Below are positions 25,301 through 56,279 of a DNA stretch of 64,000 nucleotides, piece by piece. Positions within the stretch are counted from its first letter, which is position 1. The number at the start of each line of letters is the position of its first letter. Both the position numbers and the translations under genes were made by a program. Location: assembly GCA_023245035.1 (NCBI GenBank), contig JAHFLD010000001.1, positions 83,285-147,284 of the forward strand. Reading direction: 5' to 3'. The notes beneath the pieces are model-generated. The model worked only from the letters and a program-made list of their open reading frames with translations, was not told where the DNA came from and did no database searches. This DNA comes from Candidatus Harrisonbacteria bacterium. GTDB taxonomy: Bacteria; Patescibacteriota; Minisyncoccia; UBA6257; 1-14-0-10-40-38.

Positions 25301-25997
25301 ACCGGCCATCTATCGCTTCTCGGTCACTGCTCCGTCAACGGGTGGAGTTGGACTTTATAAGTTCAGCTTCCGCACGGCGACCGCAGGTGGTACTACGGCT
25401 GTTTCTTACCAAGTCACCAACTTCCAGACCTGGGGCTACTCCGATTCGGCGTTCTCCATTCCGGCATATGGTTCGACTGGTCTCTTGAACAGCTCTGATC
25501 TAGTAACTGCGTCAAGCACGGCAACGGGCTACGCCATCGACGATTCGGCTAACCAGGCAGGAAGATTTACCATCTTCTTCAACCCGGTTGCCGGCAGCGG
25601 CACGACCAATGAGGCGATTCAGGTCCCAGCCGGACAGACTCGCTACTTTGAGGTCAAAGCCAACGTTGCTGGTGTCAGCGCTTCAACGACATTGAGCACC
25701 CAGCTTGAGGGCGACATTCAAACCCTTTATGCGAAGGATGCCGCGGATACATTTACCTCCGGCAACTACTCCTTCGCCACTACGGCCGCTTATGTTGCTT
25801 CTAGCACCATATTCGGTACCGAAGGCGCGGGCGGTGATGGCGTACTCTTGAGTGGATCAGGGGATGTCAGAAACGACTTCATTTGGTCCGACAACGCGAC
25901 GACCACTTCCGGTGTTGCGAACTACGACTGGATGAACGGCTACTTGGTTCCTGGCTTGCCGGGCACCAACATGTCATCTCAGACGCTCACCCCCTAA
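22332..25997 (+). CDS. giant secreted Thr/Ser/Gly/Ala-rich surface protein with an N-terminal peptidoglycan-binding (PG_binding_1-like) domain; S-layer/adhesin-like
   Basis: Signal peptide, a coiled-coil heptad (LQAQIAALQAQLSAL), a PG-binding-like domain (TCLQNYLTSTGDYTHSGGATGYFGNITKAAVASWQSKHGV), a TPTPTPTP linker, then ~1000 aa of Cys-free beta-rich low-complexity sequence. 1221 aa. Confidence 0.8.
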   Translation: MSKTLTSKITSVVLSVATLALFAGSMLPKAEAAMSVADLQAQIAALQAQLSALAGGSSTPATSCTFSSTLTVGAKGSAVTCLQNYLTSTGDYTHSGGATGYFGNITKAAVASWQSKHGVSPAAGVFGPISRAKYSELQAVAVTPTPTPTPGPVAAGTGLTVSLASDQPAQGLFGESFASRPFTKLNLTASSDGDVTVKKIVVERVGQSADAVFSGVIALDENYIRYDRSKTFGSDHTLSLTPSILVKAGQTKTVYIAGDSDNNQDAYNGQLAALQVKSVDAGTATVNGSFPMVGTTMTVNSTLAIGSATLTRGTLDPGVSQTKEVGTTGYTFSGIRISAGSNEDITVKAVKFLQSGSASASDLSNVQVVLDGTSYPAQLSSDGKYYTANFGSGLFIQKGLQKEMSIKGDVIGGSNRTVDMNLDYYEDLRIVGATYGYAITPSATDSGDSATDNDGTFQASNPNYDGYLATIGTGTMNVTKANSVTAQNIAINLADQVLGGFDFDVKGEPITIATLRFSLAPNSGSSADTADITNVKLVRADGTVVAGPVDAVAGGTNAVVFTDTVTFNPGITTYKLIGKLGTDFTNNNTVTASTTPGSNWSTIRGTVSNISLTPTPSGAVIANTMTVKAAALSVSVSPIPSAQTIVAGLNGFNFGNFVFDASGSGEDVRTTSFQPQISFGQLNTADDLRACQLFDGATALNTGTNIVNPGNSVANQDNVTFTLDSGVIIPKGSVKTLALKCNVSATTTSVSTVAGTINYTFAWGLGSGASAANTAVTTGLTSGQTVTPTINTNNGQNISVVASGTLSIALDSSSPGARWAAGGTTDNVLNVLRITTGAEDVNLTQIGLILGGGASNTPQDLTKVTLWDGDAATPTKVGEVVFSTADIATATISGMIIPKNSDRKLVIKGDIGAFGVGAPAKPGHLVRVEYWYASGDTSGNGTRGTGLSSGNFIYSGTTASTTASGGVYIAKSYPILTPIALPTNKLIAGTPAIYRFSVTAPSTGGVGLYKFSFRTATAGGTTAVSYQVTNFQTWGYSDSAFSIPAYGSTGLLNSSDLVTASSTATGYAIDDSANQAGRFTIFFNPVAGSGTTNEAIQVPAGQTRYFEVKANVAGVSASTTLSTQLEGDIQTLYAKDAADTFTSGNYSFATTAAYVASSTIFGTEGAGGDGVLLSGSGDVRNDFIWSDNATTTSGVANYDWMNGYLVPGLPGTNMSSQTLTP

Positions 25998-29241: not shown

Positions 29242-29853
29242 CTACTTTCGCGCCAAAACATAGAATCCGGCAGTTGTTGTTCTCTGTTTAGTTTTCAACA
29301 AAAGATCCAGACTTTGAGCGATAAAATTCAATAATGGTCGCATTCGGTGTTGGAACGGAACAAAAAAAGACAGGGCCAAAAAATATCCTCCGCGTTTCCG
29401 GACTTCGACCGAAGAAAAATCACGACATAACTCATTAATGGTATCATTGAAAAAACGCCAATAATCACCATAATGCCCGAGACGCGCGTGGTATGGATAT
29501 AGTGAAGGAACATAAAAGAAAAGAATCCCACCGGGTCGGAGAATTCGCTTGATTTCCGAAAAAGCCCGCAGTGGGTCGGGAATGTGCTCTAAAACCGAAC
29601 TGCACAAAATAGCGTCAGCCGAAGCATCTTCAAGCGGGATGTCGCTGACACTCCCTAGAATATCGGGGTGCGTTGTTGGGTCAGAGTCAAGTGTCCGATA
29701 AGTTTTTCCCTTAAAAAGAGCTTCATATGGCGCGAGCCACTTGGTAAATCTTTCGCCGCCGCCGACATCGATTATGTTTTTTTCTTGGGCCACTTGGCGG
29801 ACGGCATGTTCAATGAAGTTTTTTGAAGATTCTTGAGTGAGTGATAGTCTCAT
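29242..29853 (-). CDS. class I SAM-dependent methyltransferase
   Basis: Motif I (IIDVGGGE) and post-I/II features (ILCSSVLEHIPDPLRAFSEIKRILRPGGILFFYVPS). Confidence 0.8.
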   Translation of the reverse strand: MRLSLTQESSKNFIEHAVRQVAQEKNIIDVGGGERFTKWLAPYEALFKGKTYRTLDSDPTTHPDILGSVSDIPLEDASADAILCSSVLEHIPDPLRAFSEIKRILRPGGILFFYVPSLYPYHARLGHYGDYWRFFNDTINELCRDFSSVEVRKRGGYFLALSFFVPFQHRMRPLLNFIAQSLDLLLKTKQRTTTAGFYVLARK

Positions 29854-33738: not shown

Positions 33739-34446
33739 ATGTCATTCAAAAAACTCTCTATCGTCATACCGGCCTATAACGAATCGGCTACCCTGCGCGA
33801 GATTATCGCCAAAGTTAAGGCGGTCCAACTTCCCGGCGGCTTAACCAAAGAGATAATTGTCGCCGACAATGGTTCGAGCGACGCCACGGAAGAACTGCTA
33901 AAAACCATACCCGACATCACGGTTCTGATTTTGCGCCCCAACCGTGGCAAAGGGGGAGCGGTCAAAGCCGGATTCGCGGCCGCGACCGGCGACTTGGTGA
34001 TTATCCAGGATGCTGACTTGGAATACGACCCCGAAGATTTTCCGGCTATGGTGCGCCCGATTCTTGATGGCAAGACCGAAGTCACGATCGGAGTTCGGAT
34101 TGAACCCGAACATGACGCGCGCAAGCACAAATCGCTCTACTGGGCGAGTTGGTTCGGCAATCACCTCATAACCTGGACGACCAATATTTTGTATCTCAAC
34201 AACGGCGGGGAATACGAAGGTTGCTACAAAGCCTTCACCAAAAAATTACTGGACCAGATTACCGTCAAAACTAACAATTTTGATTTTGATAACGAACTCG
34301 TCTGCAAAATCCTCAAGCAAGGATACAAAACCATAGACGTTCCCATCCGCTATTATCCCCGCAACTACGACGAAGGCAAAAAAATCAATTGGAAGCACGG
34401 CGTAAAAATCCTCTGGACGATTATCAAGTATCGCTTCGTGCGCTAA
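33739..34446 (+). CDS. glycosyltransferase family 2 (small soluble GT-A, DPM1/GtrB-like catalytic domain)
   Basis: LSIVIPAYNE, VADNGSSDAT and the DAD/DxD region (VIIQDADLEYDPEDF). 235 aa with no C-terminal TM segments. Confidence 0.8.
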   Translation: MSFKKLSIVIPAYNESATLREIIAKVKAVQLPGGLTKEIIVADNGSSDATEELLKTIPDITVLILRPNRGKGGAVKAGFAAATGDLVIIQDADLEYDPEDFPAMVRPILDGKTEVTIGVRIEPEHDARKHKSLYWASWFGNHLITWTTNILYLNNGGEYEGCYKAFTKKLLDQITVKTNNFDFDNELVCKILKQGYKTIDVPIRYYPRNYDEGKKINWKHGVKILWTIIKYRFVR

Positions 34447-36390: not shown

Positions 36391-37293
36391 ATGCAGAAAA
36401 TCAAGCCAAAACAAGTAACTAAGCTCATTATTCCGCTGGCCGGTTTCGGCACGCGCTTTCTGCCTGTTTCCAAAAATTATCCCAAGGAGATGATTAATTT
36501 GGTTGACCGGCCGGTGATTCAATATCTCGTGGAAGAGGCCCACGAATCCGGCATCAAAGAAATCATCTTTGTTCTCAACTACAGCAAAGACATTATCCCG
36601 CAATATTTTTCCAAGCACCAACATCCCCACCAAAAAAAAGCCTACCAAAATTCCTCTGCCGCCAAAGAAAATCTGGCGGAACTCGACGACCTGCTTTCTA
36701 AAATAAAATTTCATAAGATTAAAAAAACCACCACTCTCGGCGACGGACACTCTATTTTATTTGCCAAATCAAAAATCGGCGCGGGCGAACCATTCGCGGT
36801 AACCATGGGTGATCTGCTTTCGCCCCCCGGCAAACCCTTTCTTAAGCAATTGATTCAGGTTTACCAAAAAACCGGCGCGCCGGTTATTTCGGTGGAAAAG
36901 AAACCGAGACCAGAAGTCAACAAGTTTGGCGTCATCGCTCCCCAAAAAAGCGATGGCCGCCTGCATCTCGTCGGCGGTCTGGTGGAAAAACCCAAACCGG
37001 AAGAAGCTCCCAGCACCATGGTACTTACCGGTAAATATATTTTGACTCCCGCGATTTTTCGGGAAATTCAAAAAGTCATGAAAAATCCGGCAAGCGGCGA
37101 AGTGCGCCTGGCGGACGCCTTGGCATCTTACGCCAAAAACAACACGCTCTACGCCTATGAGTGCGAGGGCAAGATTCAGGATACCGGCAATAAGTTGGAT
37201 TTTTTGAAAGCTACCGTGGAATTTGCCGCCGCACATAAAGTTTTCGGCGCGGATTTCAAAAAATTCCTTCAGTCGTTTACGCGCGAAGTTTAG
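36391..37293 (+). CDS. galU: UTP--glucose-1-phosphate uridylyltransferase
   Basis: LIIPLAGFGTRFLPVSKNYPKEMINLVDRPVIQYLVEEA matches the GalU N-terminal signature. Start at the internal ATG of the 36250 ORF. Confidence 0.8.
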   Translation: MQKIKPKQVTKLIIPLAGFGTRFLPVSKNYPKEMINLVDRPVIQYLVEEAHESGIKEIIFVLNYSKDIIPQYFSKHQHPHQKKAYQNSSAAKENLAELDDLLSKIKFHKIKKTTTLGDGHSILFAKSKIGAGEPFAVTMGDLLSPPGKPFLKQLIQVYQKTGAPVISVEKKPRPEVNKFGVIAPQKSDGRLHLVGGLVEKPKPEEAPSTMVLTGKYILTPAIFREIQKVMKNPASGEVRLADALASYAKNNTLYAYECEGKIQDTGNKLDFLKATVEFAAAHKVFGADFKKFLQSFTREV

Positions 37294-37353: not shown

Positions 37354-37962
37354 ATGCAGGGCCGAATCACCAAAATCCAAAAACTTTCGGGAAAGTTTCA
37401 CAACATCTTTCGTTTTACTCGGCGCACCGCCAAGGTAAAATTGCATAATGGCAAAGAGTATTCTCTAATCCGCCACGTTCTCGAAACCGGCCCGGCGGTC
37501 AGCGTCTTGCCCTACTTTTATGACGAGCAAAAAAAAATCTGGAACGTCGTTATGGTTCGCCAATATCGTCCGGCGGTAGACGCGGTTTGCCTGGAAGCTC
37601 CCGGCGGACTGACTCACGAAGGGAGCGATTTGAAGCGCGAAATGGCTCGTGAATTGCAAGAAGAGTCCGGCATCAAAATCACTCCGCGAGCGATTAAGGT
37701 TATCGGAAGCCAGCACCTAGCCAATTCTTTTTGCGATCAAGTGGTGCACCTTGGAATTGTTAAGCTCCCGCCAAAAATCATCGACCAGCTTCGGCGCAAA
37801 GAAAAAATCCACAATGGAGTCATCAGCGAGCGCGAATTTACCGAAGTCATCGTCTTACCTCTTGCCAAGGTTTTGAATAACCAAAAGTTAGTCACCTACA
37901 CCCTCGCCAAATATCAAGCGCTGGATCTCAAGCATCGTTTAGGTGATCTTCTTGAAGGCTAG
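37354..37962 (+). CDS. NUDIX hydrolase
   Basis: Nudix box (APGGLTHEGSDLKREMARELQEESGI). Confidence 0.75.
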   Translation: MQGRITKIQKLSGKFHNIFRFTRRTAKVKLHNGKEYSLIRHVLETGPAVSVLPYFYDEQKKIWNVVMVRQYRPAVDAVCLEAPGGLTHEGSDLKREMARELQEESGIKITPRAIKVIGSQHLANSFCDQVVHLGIVKLPPKIIDQLRRKEKIHNGVISEREFTEVIVLPLAKVLNNQKLVTYTLAKYQALDLKHRLGDLLEG

Positions 37963-38115
37963 GAATAAAGCTTCGCATTAGAAAACTTTTAAATACGAGG
38001 CGCGAGAGAGTACCGAGGGAGGCGTACATTAGTAGATGTACTCTGACCGAGGAACGGAGCTCGCAACAAAGTAGTTAAAGTTTTTAATGCGAAGAAGAGT
38101 ATAAAAAACCCCGAC

Positions 38116-39603
38116 CTAAGTCGGGGCTGTACTACTGCGCAAAATGAAGTCCGGGAGTCCCTGTCCCATGCTGTGTCCAAACTGAAGTTCGGGCACATCG
38201 GTCTGGTAGGGTTGTCCCAGTTTTTCTCGAAGCTCTCTTTCGGTCTCTCGGCACAGACGCGCCAAATCCTCGGCGGAAAGTTCATCGGTAAAGGCGAAGA
38301 AGCTGTCCAGCCCCATTCGCGCCCCGCGATCACCCTTGTAGTAGATGAAGTCCTTAAAGTAATCAACTTGTCTGGAATACAAGTGATCGCCATTTACCGT
38401 GTAAACCCAAACTCCATCCAAATGCGGAACCGCGTGGTCAAAGTAGGGCGTTCCCGGATAGACGGTAATCCGCGTCAGATCAAACGATTCCGGCCTCATC
38501 GCCAAAATCCAATCCTTTGTCTCTAAAATTGTCTCTTCGGTCTCGCCCGGATGCCCAACGGACATCAAGGCCTTAACTCTTAAGCCGTGTCGACGCGCTA
38601 TCTCCACGCACCGCGTATTATCTTCTCGAGTGGCGCCCTTCTTGATGTTGCGCAAGATACGGGGCGATCCCGATTCAAAGCCGGTCAAAATTTCGCGGAA
38701 TCCGGCCTCGTACATCGCCTCCGCCTGTTCGTCGGTAAAAAGTTCGGACTTGATGAACCCGCGCAGAGCCCATTCAATTCCCAACTCCTTGCCGAGTGTG
38801 GCAATGGCCCGCATGAGCGCTACCATTTGCGGATTAACATTTAGCTCATCGTCGTAAAACATTATCCCGCGGTAACCGTAGGTCTGGTAGATGTGGCGCA
38901 TCTCGGCAATCACGCTTTCCGTTGTTCGCACGCGAACCTTGCGCAAAAATGGCGATTCGCGCCCGCCGCAAAAACCGCATTGGAAGGGGCATCCCAACTG
39001 GGCGATCATGCTTGTGGCCGGCGCGCCGTTGATTCGGTAGTGATAGCTTTCCATCGCGACCAGATCACGGGCAGGAAAGGGTAGAGCCGTTAATTCTTCG
39101 GAAGTCAGAAATAACGGGCTGCGCCGATCATCGGCATCAATCAACTGTGGTCCGTTCGGATTAAGCGCCTCAAAGATCGCCTTCTCGCCGTCGCCGGCGA
39201 CCAGACAATCAAACATCTGGGCTAATCTTTGTAAATCATGATCCGCTCGGCCTAAAACGTTGCGTTCAACTTCTTGCCGTCTTGCCGCATTCACGAGTGT
39301 AACGTGTGGGCCGCCCAAGACTAACTTGATGTCCGGATTAAAATTCCGGATTATCTCCGCGATTCGCGCCGTTGCCGGCATCTGCGGGCTGGTCGCTGTA
39401 ATGCCAATGAACCAGGGTTTGTTTTTGCCGGCAATGTAGGCGCAAACCGCCTCGGGGTAGTTGGCCACTCCGGACAAGTCCAAGACATCAACCTCGATTT
39501 TTTTTTCCCGCAACACCGCCGCTACCCGTAAAACTCCGATGTGAGTGAAGAATCTTTCATCGCTCAAAATGAGCGACGGGGGAATGATTAAACCGACAGG
39601 CAT
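38116..39603 (-). CDS. B12-binding radical SAM enzyme (class B radical SAM; cobalamin-binding domain plus radical SAM core)
   Basis: N-terminal B12-binding-like Rossmann segment. CxxxCxxC cluster motif (GCPFQCGFCGG). Start at the internal Met, preceded by AAGGAG 5 nt upstream. The terminator hairpin overlaps its stop (38108-38125). Confidence 0.8.
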   Translation of the reverse strand: MPVGLIIPPSLILSDERFFTHIGVLRVAAVLREKKIEVDVLDLSGVANYPEAVCAYIAGKNKPWFIGITATSPQMPATARIAEIIRNFNPDIKLVLGGPHVTLVNAARRQEVERNVLGRADHDLQRLAQMFDCLVAGDGEKAIFEALNPNGPQLIDADDRRSPLFLTSEELTALPFPARDLVAMESYHYRINGAPATSMIAQLGCPFQCGFCGGRESPFLRKVRVRTTESVIAEMRHIYQTYGYRGIMFYDDELNVNPQMVALMRAIATLGKELGIEWALRGFIKSELFTDEQAEAMYEAGFREILTGFESGSPRILRNIKKGATREDNTRCVEIARRHGLRVKALMSVGHPGETEETILETKDWILAMRPESFDLTRITVYPGTPYFDHAVPHLDGVWVYTVNGDHLYSRQVDYFKDFIYYKGDRGARMGLDSFFAFTDELSAEDLARLCRETERELREKLGQPYQTDVPELQFGHSMGQGLPDFILRSSTAPT

Positions 39604-39720
39604 GAGAACTCCTTGTGTTGTTTCAAAGAACCATTCCAATTAAGCCAAAAAAACCGGTATTTAGCAAGTGTTCGGTAACCGGAATTGAAGCTCGGGCGAT
39701 TCCATGATACGGTGGCCAAA

Positions 39721-41415
39721 ATGCGACTCCTATCGGCAAAAAAGCACGTTATCATCCTAAGCGCTATTTTTTTGCTCGCGCTCGCGGTTCGTTTAGTTGG
39801 GGTTCAATATGGCTTGCCCCAGGAATACGTTGGCGACGAGTATGTTCAAGTTGCCGTCGCGCTCAAAATGCTGGACACGAGGTCGCTCACGCCAAATTTT
39901 CCCACGATTTTTTATCATCAACCGCTTAGCGCCTACATTTCCACCGCGGGTATCGCGACTTATCTTGGCTCGCAAATGCTCACCGGACGGTTTGCGGACC
40001 TTGCCGCCATGCGCGACTACTATGCCGTTCACGCGAGCGATCTTTTAATTGTTATCCGCTCGCTCGCGGCTCTGCTCGGAGCGTTCTCTGTTTTTTTTAT
40101 CTATGCCGCGGGGCGCGACTTATGGAGTAAAAAAGTCGGCTACCTAGCCGCGCTCTTTTTTGCCTTGGAGAGTGTGGCGGTCTACGTCGGGCATAGCGGG
40201 CGGGTCTGGGGCTATATGGTTTTTTTTATCTCACTCTCCCTCTCTGCGTCGGTTAAGCTTTTCCAAAATCCCACGGCGAAAAATTACGCGCGTCTGACTT
40301 GGACGACGATTCTCGCCGCCGCCAACGCCCTGCCCGGGATTTTTACCCTGGCGCCGACCCTCCTCACCCAATCCTGGCGTCATAATAAAAACCTTGGGAA
40401 ATCCCTTCTGATAATTATACTTGGCGTAATTTTGATCGTCCTCATGAGTCCGCGAGGCTTGGGCGCCCTGATTTTTAGATTCCAAAGTTTAAGTGGCGGC
40501 AATCTGACGCAACTCGTCTCCGGCAATCCGATTACTTATGAAGTCGCGCCGGTTCCACTAGTTAAGCGCTTTAGCGATCCCTTAAAAACACTTCTAACCT
40601 ATTCGCCGGGAATAACGCTCCTCGCGTTTTTGGGGATTATCATACTCTGGCGAAAAGAACGGAAAACCGCCTTGATGCTCCTAACCTTTCCGGTTGCTTA
40701 TTATCTCTTCATCGGTCCGTTTTTTACCTTCGGCTGGGTAGTGAGAACTCTTATTGTTTTTTCTCCTTACTTAAGCCTCTTCGCGGCTTATGCCATATTT
40801 CGTCTCGCTAAATCTACTTCGCGATATGGCAAGCTCTTCGCTGGCTCGCTTGCGGTGCTCGGCCTTCTTCCCGGAATTGTCTTTGCCTACTTGATCGATG
40901 TCAAACTCTCCCTCGCCGACACGCGCACGGAGGCCATCGAATGGGTCTACCAAAACCTTCCCGAACACTCCAAGATTATCGCCTTTTCACTCACTAACGA
41001 CGTCATCAACCAGGATCGCGACGTTTTGAAAGTCATGCAAAACTTCGTGCCGCAGAAGTTGAATAGCCGGCAAAGAACCTTGCTTTCCGCTCAGGATGGC
41101 AAGTTTCCGCGTCCTTATTATTTTGCCTGGGACGCGCGGGACAGCGGCGTGGACGCTCTGCCGAAAAATTTTTTCAAAGATCAAGGTTTTACCTATTATT
41201 TGCGGACCGATTGGGGCGGTCGTCCGCAGTCATTTTATGACGAAGCCGTGGAAAGAGTTTTTAAAACCAAAGAACTGATTGTCACCTTTGATCCATATTC
41301 CAAGCTGCCGACTGGCGAGTTCGGCAGTCTGCACAACATGATAAATCCGTGGGACGCGCTCTTTAAAGCAACGCGCTTCGGCCCTCGGGTAGAAATTTAT
41401 CGGGTTGAGTATTAA
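39721..41415 (+). CDS. GT-C family polyprenyl-phosphate-sugar-dependent glycosyltransferase (ArnT/PMT-like)
   Basis: About 12 TM helices. A DE-containing first extracytoplasmic loop (EYVGDEYVQVAVALKM). A large C-terminal soluble domain. 564 aa from the first ATG. Confidence 0.6.
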   Translation: MRLLSAKKHVIILSAIFLLALAVRLVGVQYGLPQEYVGDEYVQVAVALKMLDTRSLTPNFPTIFYHQPLSAYISTAGIATYLGSQMLTGRFADLAAMRDYYAVHASDLLIVIRSLAALLGAFSVFFIYAAGRDLWSKKVGYLAALFFALESVAVYVGHSGRVWGYMVFFISLSLSASVKLFQNPTAKNYARLTWTTILAAANALPGIFTLAPTLLTQSWRHNKNLGKSLLIIILGVILIVLMSPRGLGALIFRFQSLSGGNLTQLVSGNPITYEVAPVPLVKRFSDPLKTLLTYSPGITLLAFLGIIILWRKERKTALMLLTFPVAYYLFIGPFFTFGWVVRTLIVFSPYLSLFAAYAIFRLAKSTSRYGKLFAGSLAVLGLLPGIVFAYLIDVKLSLADTRTEAIEWVYQNLPEHSKIIAFSLTNDVINQDRDVLKVMQNFVPQKLNSRQRTLLSAQDGKFPRPYYFAWDARDSGVDALPKNFFKDQGFTYYLRTDWGGRPQSFYDEAVERVFKTKELIVTFDPYSKLPTGEFGSLHNMINPWDALFKATRFGPRVEIYRVEY

Positions 41416-41421: not shown

Positions 41422-42522
41422 ATGACCCAAAAAATTAAAGTAGTTGTAATTGTGGGCGCCCGTCCCAACTTCATGAAGGCGGCGCCACTCTTGCGCGCTA
41501 TGCGCGCCGGTAAAAAAATTGAACCGGTATTGATTCATACCGGCCAGCATTACGATCAAACCATGTCGGGATCTTTTTTTGAAGATCTCAAGCTTCCAAA
41601 GCCGGACTTGTTTTTGAACGTCGGCTCGGGAACTCACGCCGCGCAAACCGCTAAAATAATGCTGGCCTTGGAATCCGAGTTAATTCGCCTTAACCCCCGT
41701 CTGGTAATTGTAGTCGGCGACGTCAATTCAACCATTGCCGCGGCCTTGACCGCCAAAAAACTTGGCATCCAGGTCGCTCACGTTGAGTCCGGTCTCCGTA
41801 GTTTCGACGAAACCATGCCCGAAGAAATAAATCGAATACTCACCGATCACATCTCCGACTATCTTTTTGTAACCGAATCTAGCGGCATAAAAAATCTGCG
41901 CCGCGAAGGAATTGATTCTGGCAAAATATTTTTCGTGGGCAACGTCATGATTGATTCGCTGTATCAGAACCTGCCCCAAATCAACCGTTCAGAAATTATA
42001 GGAAAAATCGGAGTTACCAAAAAAAATTATGCTGTCCTTACCCTGCATCGGCCGGTGAATGTCGATGCCAAAGAATCGCTGGCGAAGATCCTTAAAATAA
42101 TTACCGAGGCAGTCGTCGACACCGAAGTTGTCTTTCCGGTGCATCCTCGCACTCGGAAGAATTTTGAAGCCATCTTGGCCGATGAAAGCATTGACCCGCG
42201 TCGCATCAAGGTTGTGGAACCATTGGGATATCTGGATTTTAATGCCCTCGTCAAAGACTCGCTTTTTGTCTTGACTGATTCCGGCGGCATCCAGGAGGAG
42301 ACCACCGCCTTGGGAATTCCCTGTATAACCCTGCGAGAAACCACGGAGCGCCCGATAACGGTTATACTGGGTACTAATCACATTGCCGGAACCGATCCGA
42401 AAAAAATCACGGCGATTATAAAAAAAATTAAACAGGGGAAGAATAAGAAAAATCACCAGGTTCCCAAATGGGATGGCCGCGCGGCCGAACGCGTTGTCAA
42501 AATTCTCCAAAAAAAATTATGA
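41422..42522 (+). CDS. wecB: UDP-N-acetylglucosamine 2-epimerase (non-hydrolysing)
   Basis: VVIVGARPNFMKAAPL, HTGQHYD and DSGGIQEETTALGIPCITLRETTERP. Confidence 0.9.
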   Translation: MTQKIKVVVIVGARPNFMKAAPLLRAMRAGKKIEPVLIHTGQHYDQTMSGSFFEDLKLPKPDLFLNVGSGTHAAQTAKIMLALESELIRLNPRLVIVVGDVNSTIAAALTAKKLGIQVAHVESGLRSFDETMPEEINRILTDHISDYLFVTESSGIKNLRREGIDSGKIFFVGNVMIDSLYQNLPQINRSEIIGKIGVTKKNYAVLTLHRPVNVDAKESLAKILKIITEAVVDTEVVFPVHPRTRKNFEAILADESIDPRRIKVVEPLGYLDFNALVKDSLFVLTDSGGIQEETTALGIPCITLRETTERPITVILGTNHIAGTDPKKITAIIKKIKQGKNKKNHQVPKWDGRAAERVVKILQKKL

Positions 42523-43475
42523 ATGTCTCGGTAGTCATTCCAACCTACAACGAAGAGTTGGCCATCGCGGAAAACGTCAAAAAAGTCATAGCGGCTCTTG
42601 AATCGAGCGGCAAGACCTGGGAATTAATTCTGGTCAACGATGGCAGCAAAGATCAGACGCTTTCCATTATTCAAGCCCTGGCCGCTAAAGAAAGGCGTCT
42701 CTGCGTTGTTTCTTATCCAGTCAATCGGGGGCGGGGCTACGCCTTGCGGCGTGGTTTTGCAGCCGCTCAAGGAGACTACATCATCGCCACCGAATCGGAC
42801 TTAAACTGGGGCAGTGAAATCATCGGCGCCTTTATTAGGAAATTGGATGAAGGCGATGCCGATCTGGTTATCGCCTCCCCGCACATGCCGGGCGGCCGCA
42901 TGGAAAACGTTCCCTTTCTTCGCTGGCTCTTGAGTTATCTGGGCAACAAGGTTTTTGCTCTCGCCTTTCCGGGGCGCATGACCATGTCGACCGGCATGAC
43001 GCGGGCCTATCGGCGCGAAGTGCTTGAATCTATGGATTTGGAAGCCGACGACAAAGAACTCCACATTGAAATTTTGTCTAAGGCTTTTGATTTGGGTTAT
43101 CGGATCGTGGAAATACCGGCCACTCTTCGCTGGAAGCTCGCCAAGCCCGGAGCGCCGGTGCGAAAATCAAGCTTCAAAATGGGCTCCATTATCAAGCATC
43201 TCGTGGTTAGTGTTGATGTCCAGCCCTATCTTTTTTTTGGCGGCCTCGGCTTTTTATTTATCCTCGTCGGCGCCTTGTTGGGGCTCTATCTCTTATGGCT
43301 TTCACTTTCGGGAGTCGGCGTCGCCGGCCGTCCGGCTCTTTTCGCCTCGGTGCTTTTTATCGTGGTTGGAATTCAAATTTTAATCTTTGGCTTTTTGGCA
43401 AGCCAAAATCGCGAACTCAAGCGCCAATTTATTCGGACTCAAAAGCTCATCAAGGAAACAACTAAACAAAAATAA
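42519..43475 (+). CDS. GT2 polyprenyl-phosphate glycosyltransferase (ArnC/GtrB/DPM1-like, with a C-terminal membrane anchor)
   Basis: VSVVIPTYNEE, LVNDGSKDQT and TESDLNW, plus two C-terminal TM helices. ATG overlaps the wecB stop (ATGA). Confidence 0.8.
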   Translation: MNVSVVIPTYNEELAIAENVKKVIAALESSGKTWELILVNDGSKDQTLSIIQALAAKERRLCVVSYPVNRGRGYALRRGFAAAQGDYIIATESDLNWGSEIIGAFIRKLDEGDADLVIASPHMPGGRMENVPFLRWLLSYLGNKVFALAFPGRMTMSTGMTRAYRREVLESMDLEADDKELHIEILSKAFDLGYRIVEIPATLRWKLAKPGAPVRKSSFKMGSIIKHLVVSVDVQPYLFFGGLGFLFILVGALLGLYLLWLSLSGVGVAGRPALFASVLFIVVGIQILIFGFLASQNRELKRQFIRTQKLIKETTKQK

Positions 43476-43478
43476 TCC

Positions 43479-44474
43479 GTGAAAGCCAAACTAATCTATT
43501 TTTCAAAAATTGGGGTTACGCTTGGGCTACTCGCTTATTTTTTGACCAAGGTTAACCTCCGTGATTCCTATGTGGCCATTAAAGCTGCCGACCCCAAGCT
43601 TTTTTTATTCGCCATAGTTATCACTGTTATCTCTTGGTACCTCGCCGCAATTCGTTGGAGCGCCGTTCTAGGCTTGATGCAGACTCAAGCTTCCGCTAGT
43701 CAGCTCTTTCGGATCAACCTCATCGGCACCTTTTATTCCATGGTCTTGCCAGGTGGCAAGTTGGCTGGTGATGCCATGTCAGCCCATCGTTTCACTAAAT
43801 ATCAAAGTCAAGGAGGCTACAGCAAGAAATATTTTTTGTCAGTCGTTATGGATCGTTTTTTTGGAATGCTCGGCATTTTTATTTTTCTCGGCTTTTATCT
43901 TCTTGCGCGCCGATCTGGCGTCTCGGCGCTTGGCAGACAAGAGTGGCTAGTAGGTCTTATCACTGTCACACTTGCCGGTCTGGGCTTGTTGGCCATTTTT
44001 TCAAACACATTGGATTTATTGATGCTTTGGGTGACCAAATTGCCGATTCGGGCACTCCAAAAATTGCGGGAACCGATTCGTGATGGTTTGCAAAAAATTC
44101 GACAAAAAAAATCCAAACTTTGGGGATTGTTGGGTATTACTGGAGTTTCTATGTTTTTTTCTATTCTTTCGGTCTATATCGTAAACCTTGCCGTTGGACT
44201 CAACGCCTCTTTCGAAATCATCGCCTTTGCTTATTCACTCTCCACTATCTTTATCGTCATTCCCATCACGCTCGCCGGCATTGGATTACGCGAGGGGACT
44301 ATCGTTTATATTTTGACTAAGGTCGGATTTGAAACGCCAAAATCAGTGGCCCTTGCTTTTTTGGGCATCGGCTTACTTTTTATTTTCGCCGCCACCGGCG
44401 GGCTTTTGGAATTAATGGGAATTATTCGCTTGGGTGGAAAAAATCATGACTCTCATAACCAGATTCAAGCATAG
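43479..44474 (+). CDS. flippase-like membrane protein (lysylphosphatidylglycerol-synthase TM-region / TIGR00374-like)
   Basis: 8 predicted TM helices. Family motif (RINLIGTFYSMVLPGGKLAGDAMSAHRF). The usual genomic partner of GtrB/ArnC-like GT2 enzymes. Confidence 0.6.
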   Translation: MKAKLIYFSKIGVTLGLLAYFLTKVNLRDSYVAIKAADPKLFLFAIVITVISWYLAAIRWSAVLGLMQTQASASQLFRINLIGTFYSMVLPGGKLAGDAMSAHRFTKYQSQGGYSKKYFLSVVMDRFFGMLGIFIFLGFYLLARRSGVSALGRQEWLVGLITVTLAGLGLLAIFSNTLDLLMLWVTKLPIRALQKLREPIRDGLQKIRQKKSKLWGLLGITGVSMFFSILSVYIVNLAVGLNASFEIIAFAYSLSTIFIVIPITLAGIGLREGTIVYILTKVGFETPKSVALAFLGIGLLFIFAATGGLLELMGIIRLGGKNHDSHNQIQA

Positions 44475-45795
44475 TCTCGAAAATAAAACCGGTGAGTGGC
44501 TGGGAATTATTCTTCTCATTGGCTTAGCCAGCGCATTGTTCTATGCGTTTTATTTTAAAATTCAGCCTAGCGTTGATGCTCGGGCCTATGATTCTATTGC
44601 CTGGGATATCGCCCAAGGCAAGGGCTACGATACCGATAGCGCTATTGGCCGCCCCGGTCCGGGATATGAATATTTTTTGGCTGGTATTTTTTCTATCTTT
44701 GGACATCGGTATCCAGCAATTTGGATTTTTCAAGCCATCTTAATTGCCGGATCAGCCTATCTGACCTTCCAGACGACGCGCCGTGTTTTCGGCCAAGTCT
44801 GGCATCCAATAATTGGACTTGCGGCTGCCGCGCTTGTATCTTGGTCGCCGGATTTGATTACCTCGGCAAGCATGTTGATGACCGAGGTGCTCACGGTCTT
44901 TCTGACCACTGCCACAATCTGGGGTTTCTTAAAATATCTTTCAACGGAACGCCGGCAAGGCATTGTGCTTACCGCGGTCGTCCTGGGATTGGCAGTTCTG
45001 ACTCGATCCAATACCATCCTTTTAATTCTGCCACTCGGTGGCGCCTTGATCTATCGACGTGAGTGGAAGCGGGGATTACTTTTGGTACTGGTTTTCATGG
45101 CGGTACTTGCCCCATGGGCTCTGCGAAATTATAGGGTCTATGGTGAACCACTGCCCTTCAACGGTGCCGCCGGACTCCTCTATGTGGGCAATCACTCCGG
45201 ATCTTCCGGGGAATTGGATTTGCATTATGACCTGCCGGTTGGCTACGGTGATTTTACTACCATGACTCAATTTGAAAACGACCAAGCGCTTCGTCGGGCA
45301 GGTCTAGATTATATCAAAAGTCATCCGCTGGATTTTATTCGCCTCTCGCTACAAAGGATTTCGGTTTATTTTAGCTTTGCCCGCCCCTTCGCTTTTTGGC
45401 CGCATCTCGTTGGCAATGCTCGCAAGGTTAGCATTGGACTCTCTAGTTTTTACGCGGCGGTTATATTCATAGGTGGTGGTTTGGGGACGCTTCTTGGCCT
45501 TCTCAAAGGAATCTTACCCAATCGCCAGCATATGGCCGTGCTTGGAGCGGCTATTCTTTCGTTGCCGCTTGCGATCGCGCCGCTTATCGTAGAAACACGC
45601 TATCGTTTTCCCAATTATCCCTTATTGGCCATTGGAGCCGGCTTTATGATTCATGCACTTTTCACTCACCGGGATTGGCTCGGAAAATTAGCGAAACAAT
45701 TGTGGATCGGTTTGGTGTTGATAGGAGGAAATACCATCTACGACGTCGCGCGTAACTTTGGTCGTATAGTGATTCGCCTTAAGAATCCGAGCTAA
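44446..45795 (+). CDS. GT-C family glycosyltransferase (PMT_2/ArnT-like)
   Basis: N-terminal loop with an acidic motif (YDSIAWDIAQGKGYDTD), followed by about 11 TM helices. The ORF track opens at a GTG at 44434. The start is placed at the ATG. Confidence 0.65.
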   Translation: MTLITRFKHSLENKTGEWLGIILLIGLASALFYAFYFKIQPSVDARAYDSIAWDIAQGKGYDTDSAIGRPGPGYEYFLAGIFSIFGHRYPAIWIFQAILIAGSAYLTFQTTRRVFGQVWHPIIGLAAAALVSWSPDLITSASMLMTEVLTVFLTTATIWGFLKYLSTERRQGIVLTAVVLGLAVLTRSNTILLILPLGGALIYRREWKRGLLLVLVFMAVLAPWALRNYRVYGEPLPFNGAAGLLYVGNHSGSSGELDLHYDLPVGYGDFTTMTQFENDQALRRAGLDYIKSHPLDFIRLSLQRISVYFSFARPFAFWPHLVGNARKVSIGLSSFYAAVIFIGGGLGTLLGLLKGILPNRQHMAVLGAAILSLPLAIAPLIVETRYRFPNYPLLAIGAGFMIHALFTHRDWLGKLAKQLWIGLVLIGGNTIYDVARNFGRIVIRLKNPS

Positions 45796-48139: not shown

Positions 48140-49114
48140 ATGAAAACCGCCTTAATTACCGGCATCACCGGTCAGGACGGCTCCTATCTGGCCGAATTCC
48201 TGCTTAAGAAAAAATACCATGTTTTTGGTTTGGAGCGGCGCACTAGCAAGCGTAACCGCGAAAGCATTGAGCATCTTATAGACAAAGTTGAACTGCTTTC
48301 CGGCGATTTATTGGACGCGGAATCAATTACTCGTGCTCTCAAGCAATCAAAACCCGACGAAGTTTATAACTTAGCTTCGCAGTCATTCATTCCAGATTCC
48401 TGGCGGCAACCGGTATACACCGGTGAAGCCACCGGCCTCGGTGTCACTCGAATGCTTGAAGCAGTTCGGGAATTTGATCCAAATATAAAGTTCTATCAGG
48501 CCTCCACTTCGGAAATGTTCGGCAAAGTTCGGGCAACTCCGCAAAACGAAGGTACTCCCTTTCATCCGCGCAGCCCTTACGGCGTGGCTAAACTCTATGG
48601 TCATTGGATAACGATTAATTATCGGGAATCCTATGGTATGTTCGCGGTATCGGGAATTTTATTCAATCACGAATCTCCCCGCCGCGGCTTGGAATTCGTA
48701 ACTCGAAAAATTACCCACACAGCAGCCAAAATTAAGCTGGGATTAGCCAAGGAATTGCGCCTGGGCAACACTAGCGCTGAACGTGATTGGGGCTTTGCCG
48801 GCGACTATGTTGAAGCAATGTGGCTCATGTTGCAACAGGAAAAACCGCAAGATTATGTTATCGCGAGCGGGGAGACGCATTCGGTAGAAGATTTTGTACA
48901 GGCAACATTCAAGTATCTTAAACTCGATCCAAAAAAGTACGTAAAAATTGATAAGAAGTTTTTCCGACCAGCGGAAACGGATTATCTCCGAGGTGATGCC
49001 GGTAAAGCCCGGCGTGAACTCGGCTGGAAACCGAAAGTCGGTTTTGAAAAATTGGTGCAAATGATGGTTGATGCCGATCTCGCGGCTCTCTCTTCTTCAA
49101 AGATATCCAAATAA
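48140..49114 (+). CDS. gmd: GDP-mannose 4,6-dehydratase
   Basis: [19 protein letters not shown] with the SDR YxxxK ([10 protein letters not shown]); a full-length match to the GMD family pattern. Confidence 0.9.
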
Positions 49115-49119
49115 TAAAT

Positions 49120-50454
49120 ATGAAAAAAGCAATGGTCTCAAAAAATAATCCTGAATTGTGTCGAGCGGTTAATAATTGTCGTTCCTGTGGCTTTGCTCCA
49201 CTTGTCGATATTTTGTCGTTGGGGGATCAATACGTGTCTAATTTTATTGAGAGCCATGACAAGCTAAAAGACGAAAAAAAATATCCTTTAGAACTGGTGC
49301 TTTGCGATGTTAGTGTCGGAGGGTGTGGACTCTTGCAACTTCGCCACACAGTTTCCCCGGAGAAAATGTATAGAACTTACTGGTATTTTTCGGGGATGAA
49401 CAAAACCATGACCGATGAACTCGCTAACATCGCGCAAACCGCGGAAAAAATCACTAATCCAAAAAAGGGGGATATTGTTGTTGATATTGGCTGCAACGAC
49501 GGAACGCTACTCAAATCATATCAAACGCCGGGCTTGGTGCGCGTTGGTTTTGAACCGGCAAAAAATCTGGTACCTCTCGCTAAAAAAATCGCCACCAAAG
49601 TTTTCAATGAATTCTTCGGATCAACGCCTTTCACTAAGGCTTATGGTCGCAAAAAAGCCAAAGTAGTCACCGCTATTGCTATGTTTTACGACTTAGACGA
49701 CCCCAATGCTTTCGTGTCGAGCGTCAAAAAAATTCTGGACCAAAAAGGTATCTTCATAATCCAGATGAACTATCTCGCTTCTATGTTGACTTTGAATGCT
49801 TTTGACAATATCGGTCACGAACACTTGGAATATTATTCCTTGCTCTCATTGGAATATTTGCTGAAACGGCACGCTTTGGAAGTGTTCGATGTAGAACTAA
49901 ATCCGATTAACGGCGGTAGCTTCCGTGTTTATATTCGTCATCAAGGAAGTATGGTCGGCAACGAGCGACAAGGGCGCCAGAAGCGGCGAGCCGAACTTCT
50001 CGCTACAGAAAAAAAGATGGGATTAAACAAGCGCCCAGTTTACGATAAGTTTGTAAAACGAGTTCATGACATTCGCCAAAAAGTTACCTCTTTCATAAAT
50101 TCCGAAACCAAACAGGGTCGGAAAGTTTACATCTATGGCGCCTCCAACCGCGGCAACACCTTACTCCAGTTTTTTGGGTTGGATTCAAAAGTTATCACCG
50201 CCGCCGCCGAACGCAATCCGGTCAAATGGGGAATGAAGACCATTGGTACAAATATTCCCATTATCTCGGAGGCGCAGGCTCGTGAAGAGAAACCTGACCA
50301 CTTTTTGGTTCTCCCCTGGGCTTTTCTCAAAGAATTTATAAATCGGGAAAAAGAATATCTGGCTTCCGGTGGGCGCTTCATTGTTCCCTTGCCGACAATG
50401 AAAATAATCTCGAGCGATGATCTGAAACCGGAATCCAAGACTACTGGCGTTTAG
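49120..50454 (+). CDS. sugar C-methyltransferase-family protein (N-terminal zinc ribbon, SAM MTase domain, C-methyltransferase C-terminal domain)
   Basis: CxxC...CxxC zinc-binding N-terminus (CRAVNNCRSCGF). SAM motif (VVDIGCNDG). Architecture of TylCIII/NovU-type NDP-hexose C-methyltransferases. Confidence 0.75.
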   Translation: MKKAMVSKNNPELCRAVNNCRSCGFAPLVDILSLGDQYVSNFIESHDKLKDEKKYPLELVLCDVSVGGCGLLQLRHTVSPEKMYRTYWYFSGMNKTMTDELANIAQTAEKITNPKKGDIVVDIGCNDGTLLKSYQTPGLVRVGFEPAKNLVPLAKKIATKVFNEFFGSTPFTKAYGRKKAKVVTAIAMFYDLDDPNAFVSSVKKILDQKGIFIIQMNYLASMLTLNAFDNIGHEHLEYYSLLSLEYLLKRHALEVFDVELNPINGGSFRVYIRHQGSMVGNERQGRQKRRAELLATEKKMGLNKRPVYDKFVKRVHDIRQKVTSFINSETKQGRKVYIYGASNRGNTLLQFFGLDSKVITAAAERNPVKWGMKTIGTNIPIISEAQAREEKPDHFLVLPWAFLKEFINREKEYLASGGRFIVPLPTMKIISSDDLKPESKTTGV

Positions 50455-51002
50455 AAAAAATCCGCCTGGAGAAAAATAGTATCGTACAAATCCAATATCG
50501 CCCGGTGCACGCCGGCGCTGATAAGTTCTTGTCGGTCAAAGGCGATCAGTCCTTTGGATGCTTCATATTCTTCCGGATCCAGATGAGAACCCGCTTCCCG
50601 AATCTCTGTCGGTGTAAGCTTGATCGTAAAATTATAAGCCAAGTGATCCGTGGCGTGATTTTGTGGCGCCTCCTTCCGATCGCGAAAAAAATATCGATGC
50701 ATCGAAACAAAGCCAAATCGCTCGTCGGGAATCTTGAGAGAAGTTTCTCGGGCAAAACATCGCGCCGCCGCCGCCTTTTCGTTTTCCCCAACAAACATCC
50801 GGCCGCCAATCAGCCATAAGCCACTACAGGGTTTAACCTTGCGCGTCGCGAGATAAACAATTTTTCGCTCTCGGTCAATCGGGATTATATCTGCGGAAAC
50901 TATAATCAAAGAATCCAGCACACTTGCGTAGGTTTTCTCCGGTAAAAAGATCGGAGTCGAGGGTCTAGCGTCGTCGTCTTTATAAAAACTGGGTTGAAGC
51001 AT
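50451..51002 (-). CDS. NUDIX hydrolase (possibly a GDP-sugar hydrolase of the Gmm/NudD type)
   Basis: Nudix box (GGRMFVGENEKAAAARCFARETSL). About 180 aa, next to gmd. Confidence 0.6.
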   Translation of the reverse strand: MLQPSFYKDDDARPSTPIFLPEKTYASVLDSLIIVSADIIPIDRERKIVYLATRKVKPCSGLWLIGGRMFVGENEKAAAARCFARETSLKIPDERFGFVSMHRYFFRDRKEAPQNHATDHLAYNFTIKLTPTEIREAGSHLDPEEYEASKGLIAFDRQELISAGVHRAILDLYDTIFLQADFF

Positions 51003-51049: not shown

Positions 51050-51574
51050 ATGGCTCATTTATCAGCCTACAAATTCTGCTCCGTCTGCGCTGGAAATCTC
51101 CGCGAAAAAAACGGCCACCTCGCCTGCGCCAAGTGTCCTTTCGTGAATTATCAAAACCCGCGACCCACCGTCAGTGGCCTCATTATGCATGGGGATAAAA
51201 TTCTCTTCACCCGCCGCGGCCGAGACCCCTACAAGGGTTGGTGGGACTTTCCCGGCGGCTTTATGGATTGGGGGGAGCACCCGGAAGAAACCCTGCGCCG
51301 CGAAATTAAAGAAGAAACCGGTTTAGATATTGCCGTTAAGCGCATCGTCGGAATCTATCCCGGATACTATCCGGCCAAGTTCGATCCGGTACACATTTTA
51401 AGCATCGCCTACTACGCCGTTGCCAAGACCGACAAGGTTGTTCCCGCCGACGACGCCGAAGAGGGGAGGTGGTTCCCGCTCACGAAGCTCCCTAAAAAAA
51501 TCGCCTTCAACAACCACGCTCGCATCCTCTCCGATTTCAAAAAGGTCTTGTGGTCGGCACCCGACATAGCTTGA
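51050..51574 (+). CDS. NUDIX hydrolase with an N-terminal zinc ribbon
   Basis: CxxC...CxxC (CSVCAGNL...CAKCPF). Nudix box (PGGFMDWGEHPEETLRREIKEETGL). Confidence 0.75.
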   Translation: MAHLSAYKFCSVCAGNLREKNGHLACAKCPFVNYQNPRPTVSGLIMHGDKILFTRRGRDPYKGWWDFPGGFMDWGEHPEETLRREIKEETGLDIAVKRIVGIYPGYYPAKFDPVHILSIAYYAVAKTDKVVPADDAEEGRWFPLTKLPKKIAFNNHARILSDFKKVLWSAPDIA

Positions 51575-51825: not shown

Positions 51826-52626
51826 ATGTCCCAACTCATAAAAGAACTGCCCTGGGATTCCAACCACTTCAAGGTGAAAATTGGTCGGTACCTGCCGACC
51901 ACCATCGCCGACCCCGATCAAGAAAAGAGCTTTCGCCAAGAGTTCTTTGCAGGAAAGTTTGACTGCGTCTATGCGATGCTCGACGCAAGCGATGTACACT
52001 CGCGCGAAGCAGCCGCTCGAAATCAGTTTTTCTTGGGCGACATCCGAATGAGCTACGCACTCACGAAGAAAGATTGGTTCCCGAAAGAACCGCAAAGGCG
52101 GCAAGGAACGATTCCCGCGGAAATTCGCTTCTTGAATCCGGATAACGCGGAGCAGGTGGCGCAAGTCAAGGTATTGTCCCGCGATCTTTCGGTTGTCAGT
52201 CGTTTTCATTTCGATGAGCGCTTTCGCCCCTATGTCGCCGATATGTACGAGATTTGGGCGGGCAACTTCATTAAGCCCAAGACCCCAACCGATCTTCCGG
52301 TCAAAACCGTCATCGCCCTTAAAAATGGCTGGGTGGCTGGTTTTATCGGCAACAAGATTGTTGAAGAAGAAAAAGACGGGCAAAAAGTTCGTCACGGCGA
52401 GGTAGTGCTCGTGGCCACCCATTCCGATTTTCGTGGCCAAGGCTTCGGTCGCGCGATGAGTGAAAAGAGTATTGACTGGTGCTTTGAACAGGGTGCCGAG
52501 TTCGTCACCGTTGATACGCAGGGCAACAACTACCAAGCCTCACGCCTCTACGAGAGTGTTGGCTTTCGTCTGCAGGACATGAAGCTGATCTACCACGTCT
52601 GGAAGCAATACGGCTTCAACAAGTAG
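51826..52626 (+). CDS. two-domain GNAT-family N-acyltransferase (WecD-like architecture)
   Basis: C-terminal acetyl-CoA-binding GNAT motif (HSDFRGQGFGRAMSE ... NYQASRLYESVGFR). AAGGAG upstream. A strong terminator follows. The 312-aa minus-strand ORF overlapping it is rejected. Confidence 0.7.
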   Translation: MSQLIKELPWDSNHFKVKIGRYLPTTIADPDQEKSFRQEFFAGKFDCVYAMLDASDVHSREAAARNQFFLGDIRMSYALTKKDWFPKEPQRRQGTIPAEIRFLNPDNAEQVAQVKVLSRDLSVVSRFHFDERFRPYVADMYEIWAGNFIKPKTPTDLPVKTVIALKNGWVAGFIGNKIVEEEKDGQKVRHGEVVLVATHSDFRGQGFGRAMSEKSIDWCFEQGAEFVTVDTQGNNYQASRLYESVGFRLQDMKLIYHVWKQYGFNK

Positions 52627-52633
52627 GCACGCA

Positions 52634-52662
52634 AGACCACCCAAAAAGGTGGTCTTTTTTTT
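52634..52662 (+). terminator. rho-independent terminator
   Basis: agaccacc caaaaa ggtggtct followed by ttttttt, immediately after the GNAT gene stop. Confidence 0.7.
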
Positions 52663-52700
52663 GCTTTCGGCATAGAATTGCCAGTATTCAAAACCAAGTT

Positions 52701-53843: not shown

Positions 53844-53896
53844 GAACTCTTTGGAGGCGGAAACCAGCCACCACCGCCCCTGGTTGTAAGTAGGTC

Positions 53897-56261: not shown

Positions 56262-56279
56262 ACTACCCCTACCAAATCC

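Follow-up and report, generated by a model that had tools for sequence, protein, structure and literature searches.

A radical SAM protein of a putative orphan clade linked to surface-glycan genes in Candidatus Harrisonbacteria and other bacteria

Introduction

A stretch of 64,000 nucleotides from Candidatus Harrisonbacteria bacterium (contig JAHFLD010000001.1, positions 83,285 to 147,284; hereafter the window) carries on its minus strand, at 38116..39603, a gene for a radical S-adenosylmethionine (SAM) enzyme with an N-terminal domain of the B12-binding type. This single-cluster radical SAM protein (rSAM) is coupled genetically, and in some members of its family also physically, to functions of sugar activation and sugar transfer, the latter represented by glycosyltransferases (GTs) of the GT2, GT-C and GT-B types. 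Judged from sequence comparison, it appears to belong to a large and highly conserved orphan clade, and the best explanation for its surroundings is that the protein is cytoplasmic and that the clade is dedicated to cell-surface glycan synthesis. What would such an enzyme do there? The reading we favour, whose chances we put at about even, is that it tailors an activated hexose, linked either to a nucleotide or to polyprenyl phosphate, for the assembly of surface glycans.

Genomic neighbourhoods of the family

Open reading frames (ORFs) were called in the loci of 80 relatives, and neighbours of the rSAM gene were clustered and labelled; counts of linkage given below cover the 74 loci in which the rSAM ORF falls into the main cluster. 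A recognisable GT is the immediate neighbour of the rSAM gene in 38 of them and lies within five genes in 56, and GTs account for about 20% of all ORFs within ±10 kb. Within the same distance of five genes, GT2 enzymes are found in 31 loci, class I methyltransferases in 30, nucleoside diphosphate (NDP)-sugar enzymes in 21, and GT-C enzymes in 16, to which two loci with orthologues of a 576-aa membrane protein of the window can be added. Among the 140 immediate neighbours, the Pfam families Glycos_transf_1 (19), Glycos_transf_2 (17) and Glyco_trans_1_2 (16) lead, followed by methyltransferase families (9), SDR (7), GT47 (5) and PMT_2 (3). An earlier note, made on this DNA from its letters alone, had named conserved linkage to GT and GT-C genes as a check of its proposal, and such linkage is indeed kept by relatives in many phyla.

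The best-conserved specific partner is a small GT2 gene, located in the window at 33739..34446 on the plus strand, whose 235-aa product resembles polyprenyl-phosphate sugar synthases (AglJ/ArnC/PpgS-like, all under cut-off). Of the 74 loci, 19 have an orthologue of it (at least 130 bits), which lies within three genes of the rSAM gene in 15 and is adjacent to it in 10; in Nitrospirota, Candidate Phyla Radiation (CPR) and Elusimicrobiota, many orthologues are on the same strand as the rSAM gene with overlapping junctions or junctions of less than 50 nt. A comparison of pairwise identities between rSAM and the small GT2 was equivocal (Pearson 0.46, Spearman 0.11, p = 0.15) and is not used as evidence. 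A recurrent module can be written as small GT2 - (methyltransferase) - rSAM - GT-C, which takes the form GT-C - GT2 - methyltransferase - rSAM or GT2 - rSAM - GT-C in Nitrospirota, and the GT2/GT-C module surrounds the rSAM gene in CPR loci as well. The closest relatives, whose rSAM is 66-69% identical to that of the window, keep the window cassette of GT2 / GalU-like / NUDIX / rSAM / GT-C. The NUDIX orthologue (58-62% identity) is convergent with the rSAM gene in all three of them, orthologues of the GalU-like protein (59-70%) and of the small GT2 (65-70%) are present in loci L085 and L086, PMT_2 orthologues flank the rSAM gene in both, and an orthologue (47% identity) of a 203-aa methyltransferase of the window stands beside the GT-C gene in L086.

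The GT-C/GT2/methyltransferase/rSAM module of Nitrospirota is also accompanied by a protein of about 284 aa without Pfam match (cluster c8; loci L018, L022, L023, L024, L028, L036, L038 and L058), whose gene is beside that for methionyl-tRNA synthetase in several Nitrospirota loci. This protein is a candidate acceptor or accessory protein because its N-terminus is hydrophobic and, by eye, signal-peptide-like.

In the window itself, the rSAM gene is embedded in one large glycan locus that extends from about 26.8 kb to at least 62.8 kb. The locus encodes nine GT4 and two GT2 enzymes, one PMT_2 GT-C and one LPG_synthase_TM protein, together with UDP-GlcNAc 2-epimerase, two SDR dehydratase/epimerases, two DegT aminotransferases, a formyltransferase, a GNAT protein, a CMP-sugar-type cytidylyltransferase, a TylC3-type C-methyltransferase, a GalU-like nucleotidyltransferase and three NUDIX proteins. 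On one side, the rSAM gene is convergent with a NUDIX hydrolase gene (37354..37962, plus strand, 202 aa), next to which is the gene for the GalU-like sugar-1-phosphate nucleotidyltransferase (36391..37293, plus strand, 300 aa; TIGR01099 238 bits, under the cut-off of 327). On the other side, it is divergent from the gene for the polytopic 576-aa membrane protein (39685..41415, plus strand; 564 aa in the public record), which has about nine hydrophobic segments and no Pfam or NCBIfam match. This protein and a PMT_2 (GT-C) protein recognised by Pfam are homologous from end to end (22% identity, E 1.6e-15), jackhmmer links the former to GT-C-labelled proteins, and its orthologues adjoin the rSAM gene in L059 and L071; the GT-C call made for it beforehand is reasonable because of this homology to PMT_2 / GT-C proteins, and the flanks described then, galU and NUDIX on one side and GT-C on the other, are those found here.

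With a synthase-type GT2 and a GT-C, the window holds the two parts of a polyprenyl-phosphate-sugar module of the ArnC/ArnT- or GtrB/GtrC-like kind. The parts are the GT2s at 33739-34446 and 42468-43475, the PMT_2 protein at 44434-45795 and the GT-C-like 576-aa protein; the second GT2 (335 aa, ArnC-like) forms with LPG_synthase_TM and PMT_2 (GT-C) a triad at 42468..45795 on the plus strand. The linkage suggests that rSAM may be a working part of this GT2/GT-C module.

Could the rSAM gene instead be a passenger, functionally unrelated and inserted oppositely into a glycan locus? It is the lone minus-strand gene in 30027-50454 and has its own Shine-Dalgarno (SD) site and terminator, and the family is patchy in distribution, suggestive of horizontal transfer, with inteins in some members. 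Still, the linkage to GTs recurs in more than 12 phyla in the 56 of 74 loci mentioned above, genes overlap within operons, gene fusions of two kinds occur, and the opposite-strand arrangement with the same neighbours is kept in relatives 66-69% identical. A passenger gene is therefore a very improbable explanation.

Gene fusions in the family

Physical coupling is seen in members in which rSAM is fused to another enzyme. In four separate 90% clusters, which came from Logan, JGI and NCBI/ENA and are 72-79% identical to one another, the protein carries a C-terminal domain like glucose-1-phosphate cytidylyltransferase (146 bits, under cut-off). These fusions (L002, L003, L087 9001-11295 and L088 218-2572) belong to an Acidobacteria-type clade; one comes from a named Acidobacteria and one is on a contig of 2.05 Mb. 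Their EPS operon runs NusG - Bac_transf - [rSAM::NTP_transferase] - NTP_transferase - SDR - second B12 rSAM and continues with GT4 and/or the exporter Wza, a layout which is that of a nucleotide-sugar precursor block. The second B12-binding rSAM of this operon, 692-697 aa long (L087 13176-15254; L088 4486-6579), is unrelated to the family. In a more distant member, P0159 (702 aa, 415 bits), the fused C-terminal domain is an Exostosin/GT47 glycosyltransferase, and this fusion mirrors the free-standing GT47-like genes that adjoin the rSAM gene in five CPR loci (L035, L046, L051, L059 and L072).

It is to be considered whether the substrate is a lipid rather than a sugar, namely the polyprenyl-phosphate carrier or another membrane lipid. 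Many rSAMs, several of class B among them, act on lipids (HpnP/HpnR; PMC13459092), the window protein has a weak NCBIfam match to the ladderane lipid rSAM (66 bits), and high conservation in the face of varying GT partners would follow from a universal carrier lipid. On the other hand, the fusion partners are a sugar-1-phosphate nucleotidyltransferase and a GT47 domain, not lipid enzymes, and genes of prenyl or lipid synthesis do not recur among the 140 immediate neighbours. The lipid substrate is thus improbable, if slightly less so than a passenger gene.

The gene and its product

The rSAM gene encodes 495 aa followed by a TAG stop. The longest ORF that spans it, 38116..39639, begins with TTG, and this start at 39639 was rejected in favour of the ATG at 39603, which is preferred by both the SD site and the alignment of homologues. 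An AAGGAG sequence at 39609..39614 on the minus strand (39614-39609 in the direction of the gene) precedes this ATG with a 5-nt spacer, and 25 of 25 aligned homologues start at the same position with M-x-[IV]-x-L-[IV]-x-PPS; because of this shared start and the SD site before it, 38116..39603 is the correct gene model. At the other end, a terminator-like hairpin at 38107..38128 on the minus strand, AGCCCCGAC-TTAG-GTCGGGGTT followed by TTTTAT, with nine pairs of which six are G-C, overlaps the TAG stop at 38118-38116. Both signals, the SD at an internal start and the terminator over the stop codon, had been read in the same way in the earlier note, which named no strand for the gene. The ORF and its translation, the Pfam matches, a model by AlphaFold2 (AF2) and an identical public protein (P0001), recorded in assemblies of NCBI, ENA and Logan on contigs that reach 262 kb, all belong to a real gene, not a chance ORF.

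Two Pfam domains are found well above their cut-offs, B12-binding (PF02310) at aa 20-107 with 51.4 bits (cut-off 32.1) and Radical_SAM (PF04055) at aa 201-366 with 92.5 bits (cut-off 29.5; 38506..39003, minus strand). CPFQCGFC at aa 205-212 (38968..38991, minus strand) provides the CX3CX2C triad C205, C209 and C212 of a radical SAM superfamily member in a partial TIM-barrel core, and an N-terminal Rossmann domain of the B12-binding type ahead of this core is the architecture of class B, so the domain architecture given in the first reading is borne out. In the AF2 model (mean pLDDT 90.4), about aa 1-160 form a five-stranded Rossmann fold (39124..39603, minus strand), in which the LGGPHxT and GDGE motifs are invariant in the family alignment, and PF02310 is present in all of the top 120 homologues. 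The core aligns to those of AprD4, MgmA and TsrM. A family-specific C-terminal domain at aa ~390-495 (38119..38436, minus strand), recognised from the alignment and the AF2 model, has conserved YYKGD and HSMGQ..LP..ILR motifs and no Pfam model. Since C205, C209 and C212 are the only invariant cysteines of the family, the enzyme has one [4Fe-4S]/SAM cluster and no auxiliary cluster.

This last point bears on the idea of a protein or peptide substrate, such as an acceptor of PMT-like GT-C enzymes or the precursor of a ribosomally synthesized and post-translationally modified peptide (RiPP). There are weak NCBIfam matches to the RiPP rSAMs ApyD (79 bits) and rSAM_ocin_1 (71 bits), and weak matches to the protein methylase MgmA (74 bits; PDB 9ccb, 62 bits). 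However, the cysteine set of a SPASM/twitch auxiliary cluster is absent, neither a conserved small precursor gene nor RiPP machinery is found among the neighbours, and GTs and NDP-sugar enzymes dominate the partners. A peptide substrate is accordingly as improbable as a passenger gene.

The family is large. The top 120 database matches are about 495-530 aa long and 55-69% identical to the window protein, the clade as a whole is 50-69% identical across phyla, and an alignment of 26 sequences has 60% mean column identity. A relative was confirmed in 505 of the 599 pattern matches listed for species-representative genomes (at least 505 loci), and a profile search of 1.84 billion representatives gave 3,171 matches at E <= 1e-30. 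The closest relatives are in Parcubacteria/Patescibacteria; the best 80 are distributed over Patescibacteria (many classes), Elusimicrobiota, Nitrospirota, Acidobacteriota, Latescibacterota, Omnitrophota, Planctomycetota, Fibrobacterota, Verrucomicrobiota, and Alpha-, Beta- and Gammaproteobacteria. A literature search found no paper describing this family, and a paper on Nitrospirota (PMC9053815) was set aside since it concerns an unrelated rSAM.

The cluster motif is also a site of inteins. Among the top 30 family representatives, about 14 have a length of 780-930 aa, enough to accommodate an intein, and seven long members do contain one, six recognised by Pfam (Intein_splicing, PF14890) and the seventh by its junction sequence; a LAGLIDADG endonuclease is also present in three of the six Pfam-scanned members. 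Depending on the member, the intein is inserted exactly at C205, C209 or C212. Relatives of the intein type are P0121, P0123, P0124, P0128, P0132, P0136, P0138 and P0153, and in P0122 an insertion whose junctions resemble those of inteins, but in which Pfam finds no intein domain, directly precedes YDDELN (about 38860 in the window). The rSAM gene of the window is intein-free.

A possible role in tailoring of activated hexoses

How might such a protein act on a sugar? The GalU-like nucleotidyltransferase would make an NDP-hexose, and this, or the polyprenyl-phosphate-hexose that the small GT2 would make from it, would be the substrate of rSAM. The 5'-deoxyadenosyl radical would take a hydrogen from an unactivated carbon of the sugar, which would then be tailored, most likely with a methyl group from methylcobalamin as by GenK and MoeK5, and the linked GT-C or GT-B transferases would place the tailored sugar on the envelope.

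As the class of substrate, context and fusions point to an activated monosaccharide. In the earlier note, a glycan residue or the lipid carrier had been proposed; the context speaks more for a monosaccharide linked to NDP or to polyprenyl phosphate than for either of them. NDP-hexose is favoured by the nucleotidyltransferase fusion, by the GalU/NUDIX cassette and by the high conservation of rSAM whatever its GT partner. The GT2/GT-C operons speak for polyprenyl-phosphate-hexose, as does the analogy with ArnD, NaxD and DprE, enzymes that tailor lipid-linked sugars ahead of GT-C transfer. Candidate substrates defined by the fusions and compact operons are CDP-hexose, UDP-hexose or what the partner GT2 produces.

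Both the use of cobalamin by rSAM and the type of its reaction are speculative. Cobalamin-dependent C-methylation is ranked first, as a tentative choice that falls clearly short of even chances, because every functionally characterised class B group includes C-methyltransferases (PMC12931638). Next comes a non-methylating radical reaction on the same activated or lipid-linked hexose, which we consider somewhat unlikely: ring contraction to a carbocycle of the type of HpnJ and calditol synthase (Cds) (PMC13459092), cobalamin-independent 1,2-diol dehydration of the AprD4 type, or epimerisation at a C-H bond. According to a 2026 review, no structural feature distinguishes methylases from other class B enzymes (PMC12931638), and no NCBIfam methylase model comes near its cut-off with the window protein, the best being PhpK (118/600). 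The lipid, peptide and passenger-gene explanations given above are minor.

Several observations weigh against hexose tailoring in surface-glycan assembly or against its cobalamin-dependent form. No recognisable GT is found within five genes of the rSAM gene in 18 of the 74 loci. There is no universal partner gene, in that no single family is present in all loci and only a nearby GT is general; the frequencies of individual partners are 26% of loci for the GT2 orthologue, about 22-25% for GT-C and 28% for NDP-sugar enzymes. In the window, the rSAM gene is the sole minus-strand gene in a plus-strand run of about 20 kb (30027-50454), a separate and opposite transcription unit whose co-regulation with the locus is hypothetical. 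A classical sugar C-methyltransferase of the TylC3 type is already encoded in the locus, at 49120-50454. An Rfam scan of the 64-kb window detected no cobalamin riboswitch, and the window of this Patescibacteria-type host has no cob/btu genes for cobalamin synthesis or uptake. Finally, AprD4 (PDB 6fd2) is, marginally, the nearest solved structure and also the best PDB sequence match, and AprD4 binds no cobalamin (PMC12931638).

If hexose tailoring by rSAM is nevertheless correct, what would it mean? Bacterial surface-glycan assembly would then have its first tailoring step by a radical SAM enzyme, and Patescibacteria, Nitrospirota, Elusimicrobiota, Acidobacteriota and others would have an undescribed sugar in their envelopes. 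Such a sugar would be exposed on the surface of many uncultivated lineages, among them the Patescibacteria, whose envelopes mediate their episymbiotic lifestyle. Moreover, the reduced genomes of the latter would rely on scavenged cobalamin for envelope synthesis, or else the Rossmann domain would have another role. The more specific proposal, a class B rSAM of primary envelope glycobiology that puts a C-methyl branch on, or makes a carbocyclic or deoxy sugar of, an NDP- or polyprenyl-phosphate-activated hexose ahead of GT2/GT-C or GT-B delivery, has in our view a little less than an even chance.

Other features of the window

Beside its rSAM gene, the glycan locus has features of its own. The 203-aa class I SAM methyltransferase mentioned above is encoded at 29242..29853 on the minus strand. 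A GDP-mannose-4,6-dehydratase-like SDR is followed by the TylC3-type NDP-hexose C-methyltransferase (Methyltransf_13/14) at 48140-50454, a gene pair that is partly visible in the relative L084; because of this pair, a classical branched-sugar pathway independent of rSAM seems to be encoded in the locus. The block at 51826-62785 looks like a nonulosonic-acid pathway of the legionaminic/pseudaminic type, with GNAT, two DegT proteins, SDR, a formyltransferase, an Epimerase_2-like protein and a CTP_transf_3 cytidylyltransferase, and inside it a DUF4910/DUF2172/M28 protein is encoded on the opposite strand (57352-58842). The three NUDIX genes are at 37354-37962, 50451-51002 (minus strand) and 51050-51574.

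Outside the glycan locus, the window is ordinary chromosome, with RecA, FtsK, RNase Y, ClpB and an HtrA-like protease. A phosphoglucomutase/phosphomannomutase gene at 8820-10123 is split into two ORFs with a 4-nt overlap (ATGA), one of 141 aa (8820-9245) with the TASHNP active-site serine loop and the other of 293 aa (9242-10123) with domains II-III; the cause is a frameshift or a natural split of the gene. The large ORFs 15569-17554 and 22332-25997 have little or no family assignment, one being 661 aa without Pfam match and the other 1221 aa with a PG_binding_1 domain only. PG_binding_1 proteins (cluster c54) flank the rSAM gene in the relatives L005 and L050. Scans for Rfam families and for tRNA genes gave no match in the window.

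Comparison with known radical SAM enzymes

Assignment to named families was judged by the NCBIfam score relative to the cut-off of each model. All 29 matches to the rSAM protein are 4- to 25-fold under cut-off, and membership in any named rSAM family was rejected, since no curated model comes near its threshold. The top match is PhpK (TIGR04479; 118.5 bits vs 600, aa 198-388 only), and the second is HpnJ (TIGR03471; 115.4 bits vs 577.6, aa 68-392). These are followed by AprD4 (NF033070; 83.4 bits vs 500, core only), ApyD (79 vs 750), BchE (TIGR02026; 76.1 vs 481), MgmA (74 vs 360), rSAM_ocin_1 (71 bits, weak), the ladderane lipid rSAM (66 bits, weak), HpnR (54 vs 650), TsrM (26 vs 500) and KedN5 (24 vs 700). 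Robust clustering with hopanoid or bacteriochlorophyll rSAMs, which the earlier note had named as the outcome that would speak against it, is not what these scores indicate (HpnJ 115/578, HpnR 54/650, BchE 76/481). The label 'anaerobic Mg-protoporphyrin IX monomethyl ester cyclase' given by JGI to homologues is unsupported because the BchE model scores as it does, and such names look like generic automatic labels.

How do the closest known enzymes compare with it? AprD4, about 20-23% identical to the window protein with likeness in sequence confined to the core (aa ~154-400), is the radical SAM 1,2-diol dehydratase of apramycin C3'-deoxygenation, and it functions in an aminoglycoside antibiotic pathway, not in a surface-glycan locus. 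Cobalamin is bound by neither AprD4 nor ArsL in spite of their Rossmann-like domains, and its binding cannot be diagnosed from any feature of sequence or structure (PMC12931638). HpnJ is a hopanoid-associated class B rSAM with a proposed ring contraction of BHT-glucosamine to a cyclitol ether; it acts after a GT2 (HpnI) on a lipid-anchored hexosamine (PMC13459092), and many members of the window family are likewise linked to a GT2. None of the hopanoid genes shc, hpnH, hpnI and hpnK is among the annotated genes of the window, and the 25 Pfam families most common among the 140 immediate rSAM neighbours in relatives include none of them. The Patescibacteria hosts are not known to have hopanoids. 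PhpK/Fom3-type class B enzymes act on phosphonates, and neither PEP mutase nor other phosphonate genes are found in the window. The substrate of Fom3 is cytidylylated (CMP-activated), which is conceptually similar to the rSAM::cytidylyltransferase fusions of the window family. MgmA/QCMT, the glutamine C-methyltransferase of MCR, differs in having a protein substrate and in its occurrence in archaeal methanogens.

GenK, GenD1/GntE, Fms7 and MoeK5 are of the same class as the window protein and methylate unactivated sugar carbons. MoeK5 acts on a sugar linked to lipid-phosphoglycerate. All of them are enzymes of antibiotic pathways, likened to the window protein by class and description, not by sequence, and they are characterised Csp3-methyltransferases (PMC12931638). 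Surface-glycan assembly has no characterised class B rSAM in the 2026 reviews (PMC12931638, PMC13459092), in agreement with the remark made beforehand that such a modification is not a described step there.

Most of what is known of class B rSAMs comes from pathways for antibiotics, cofactors, pigments and lipids, and most of their groups are still orphan. The enzyme class and the sugar-modifying class B rSAMs of antibiotic and hopanoid pathways are already known; what is new here is an apparently orphan, highly conserved clade of many phyla that is tied to primary surface-glycan loci and comes with defined candidate substrates.

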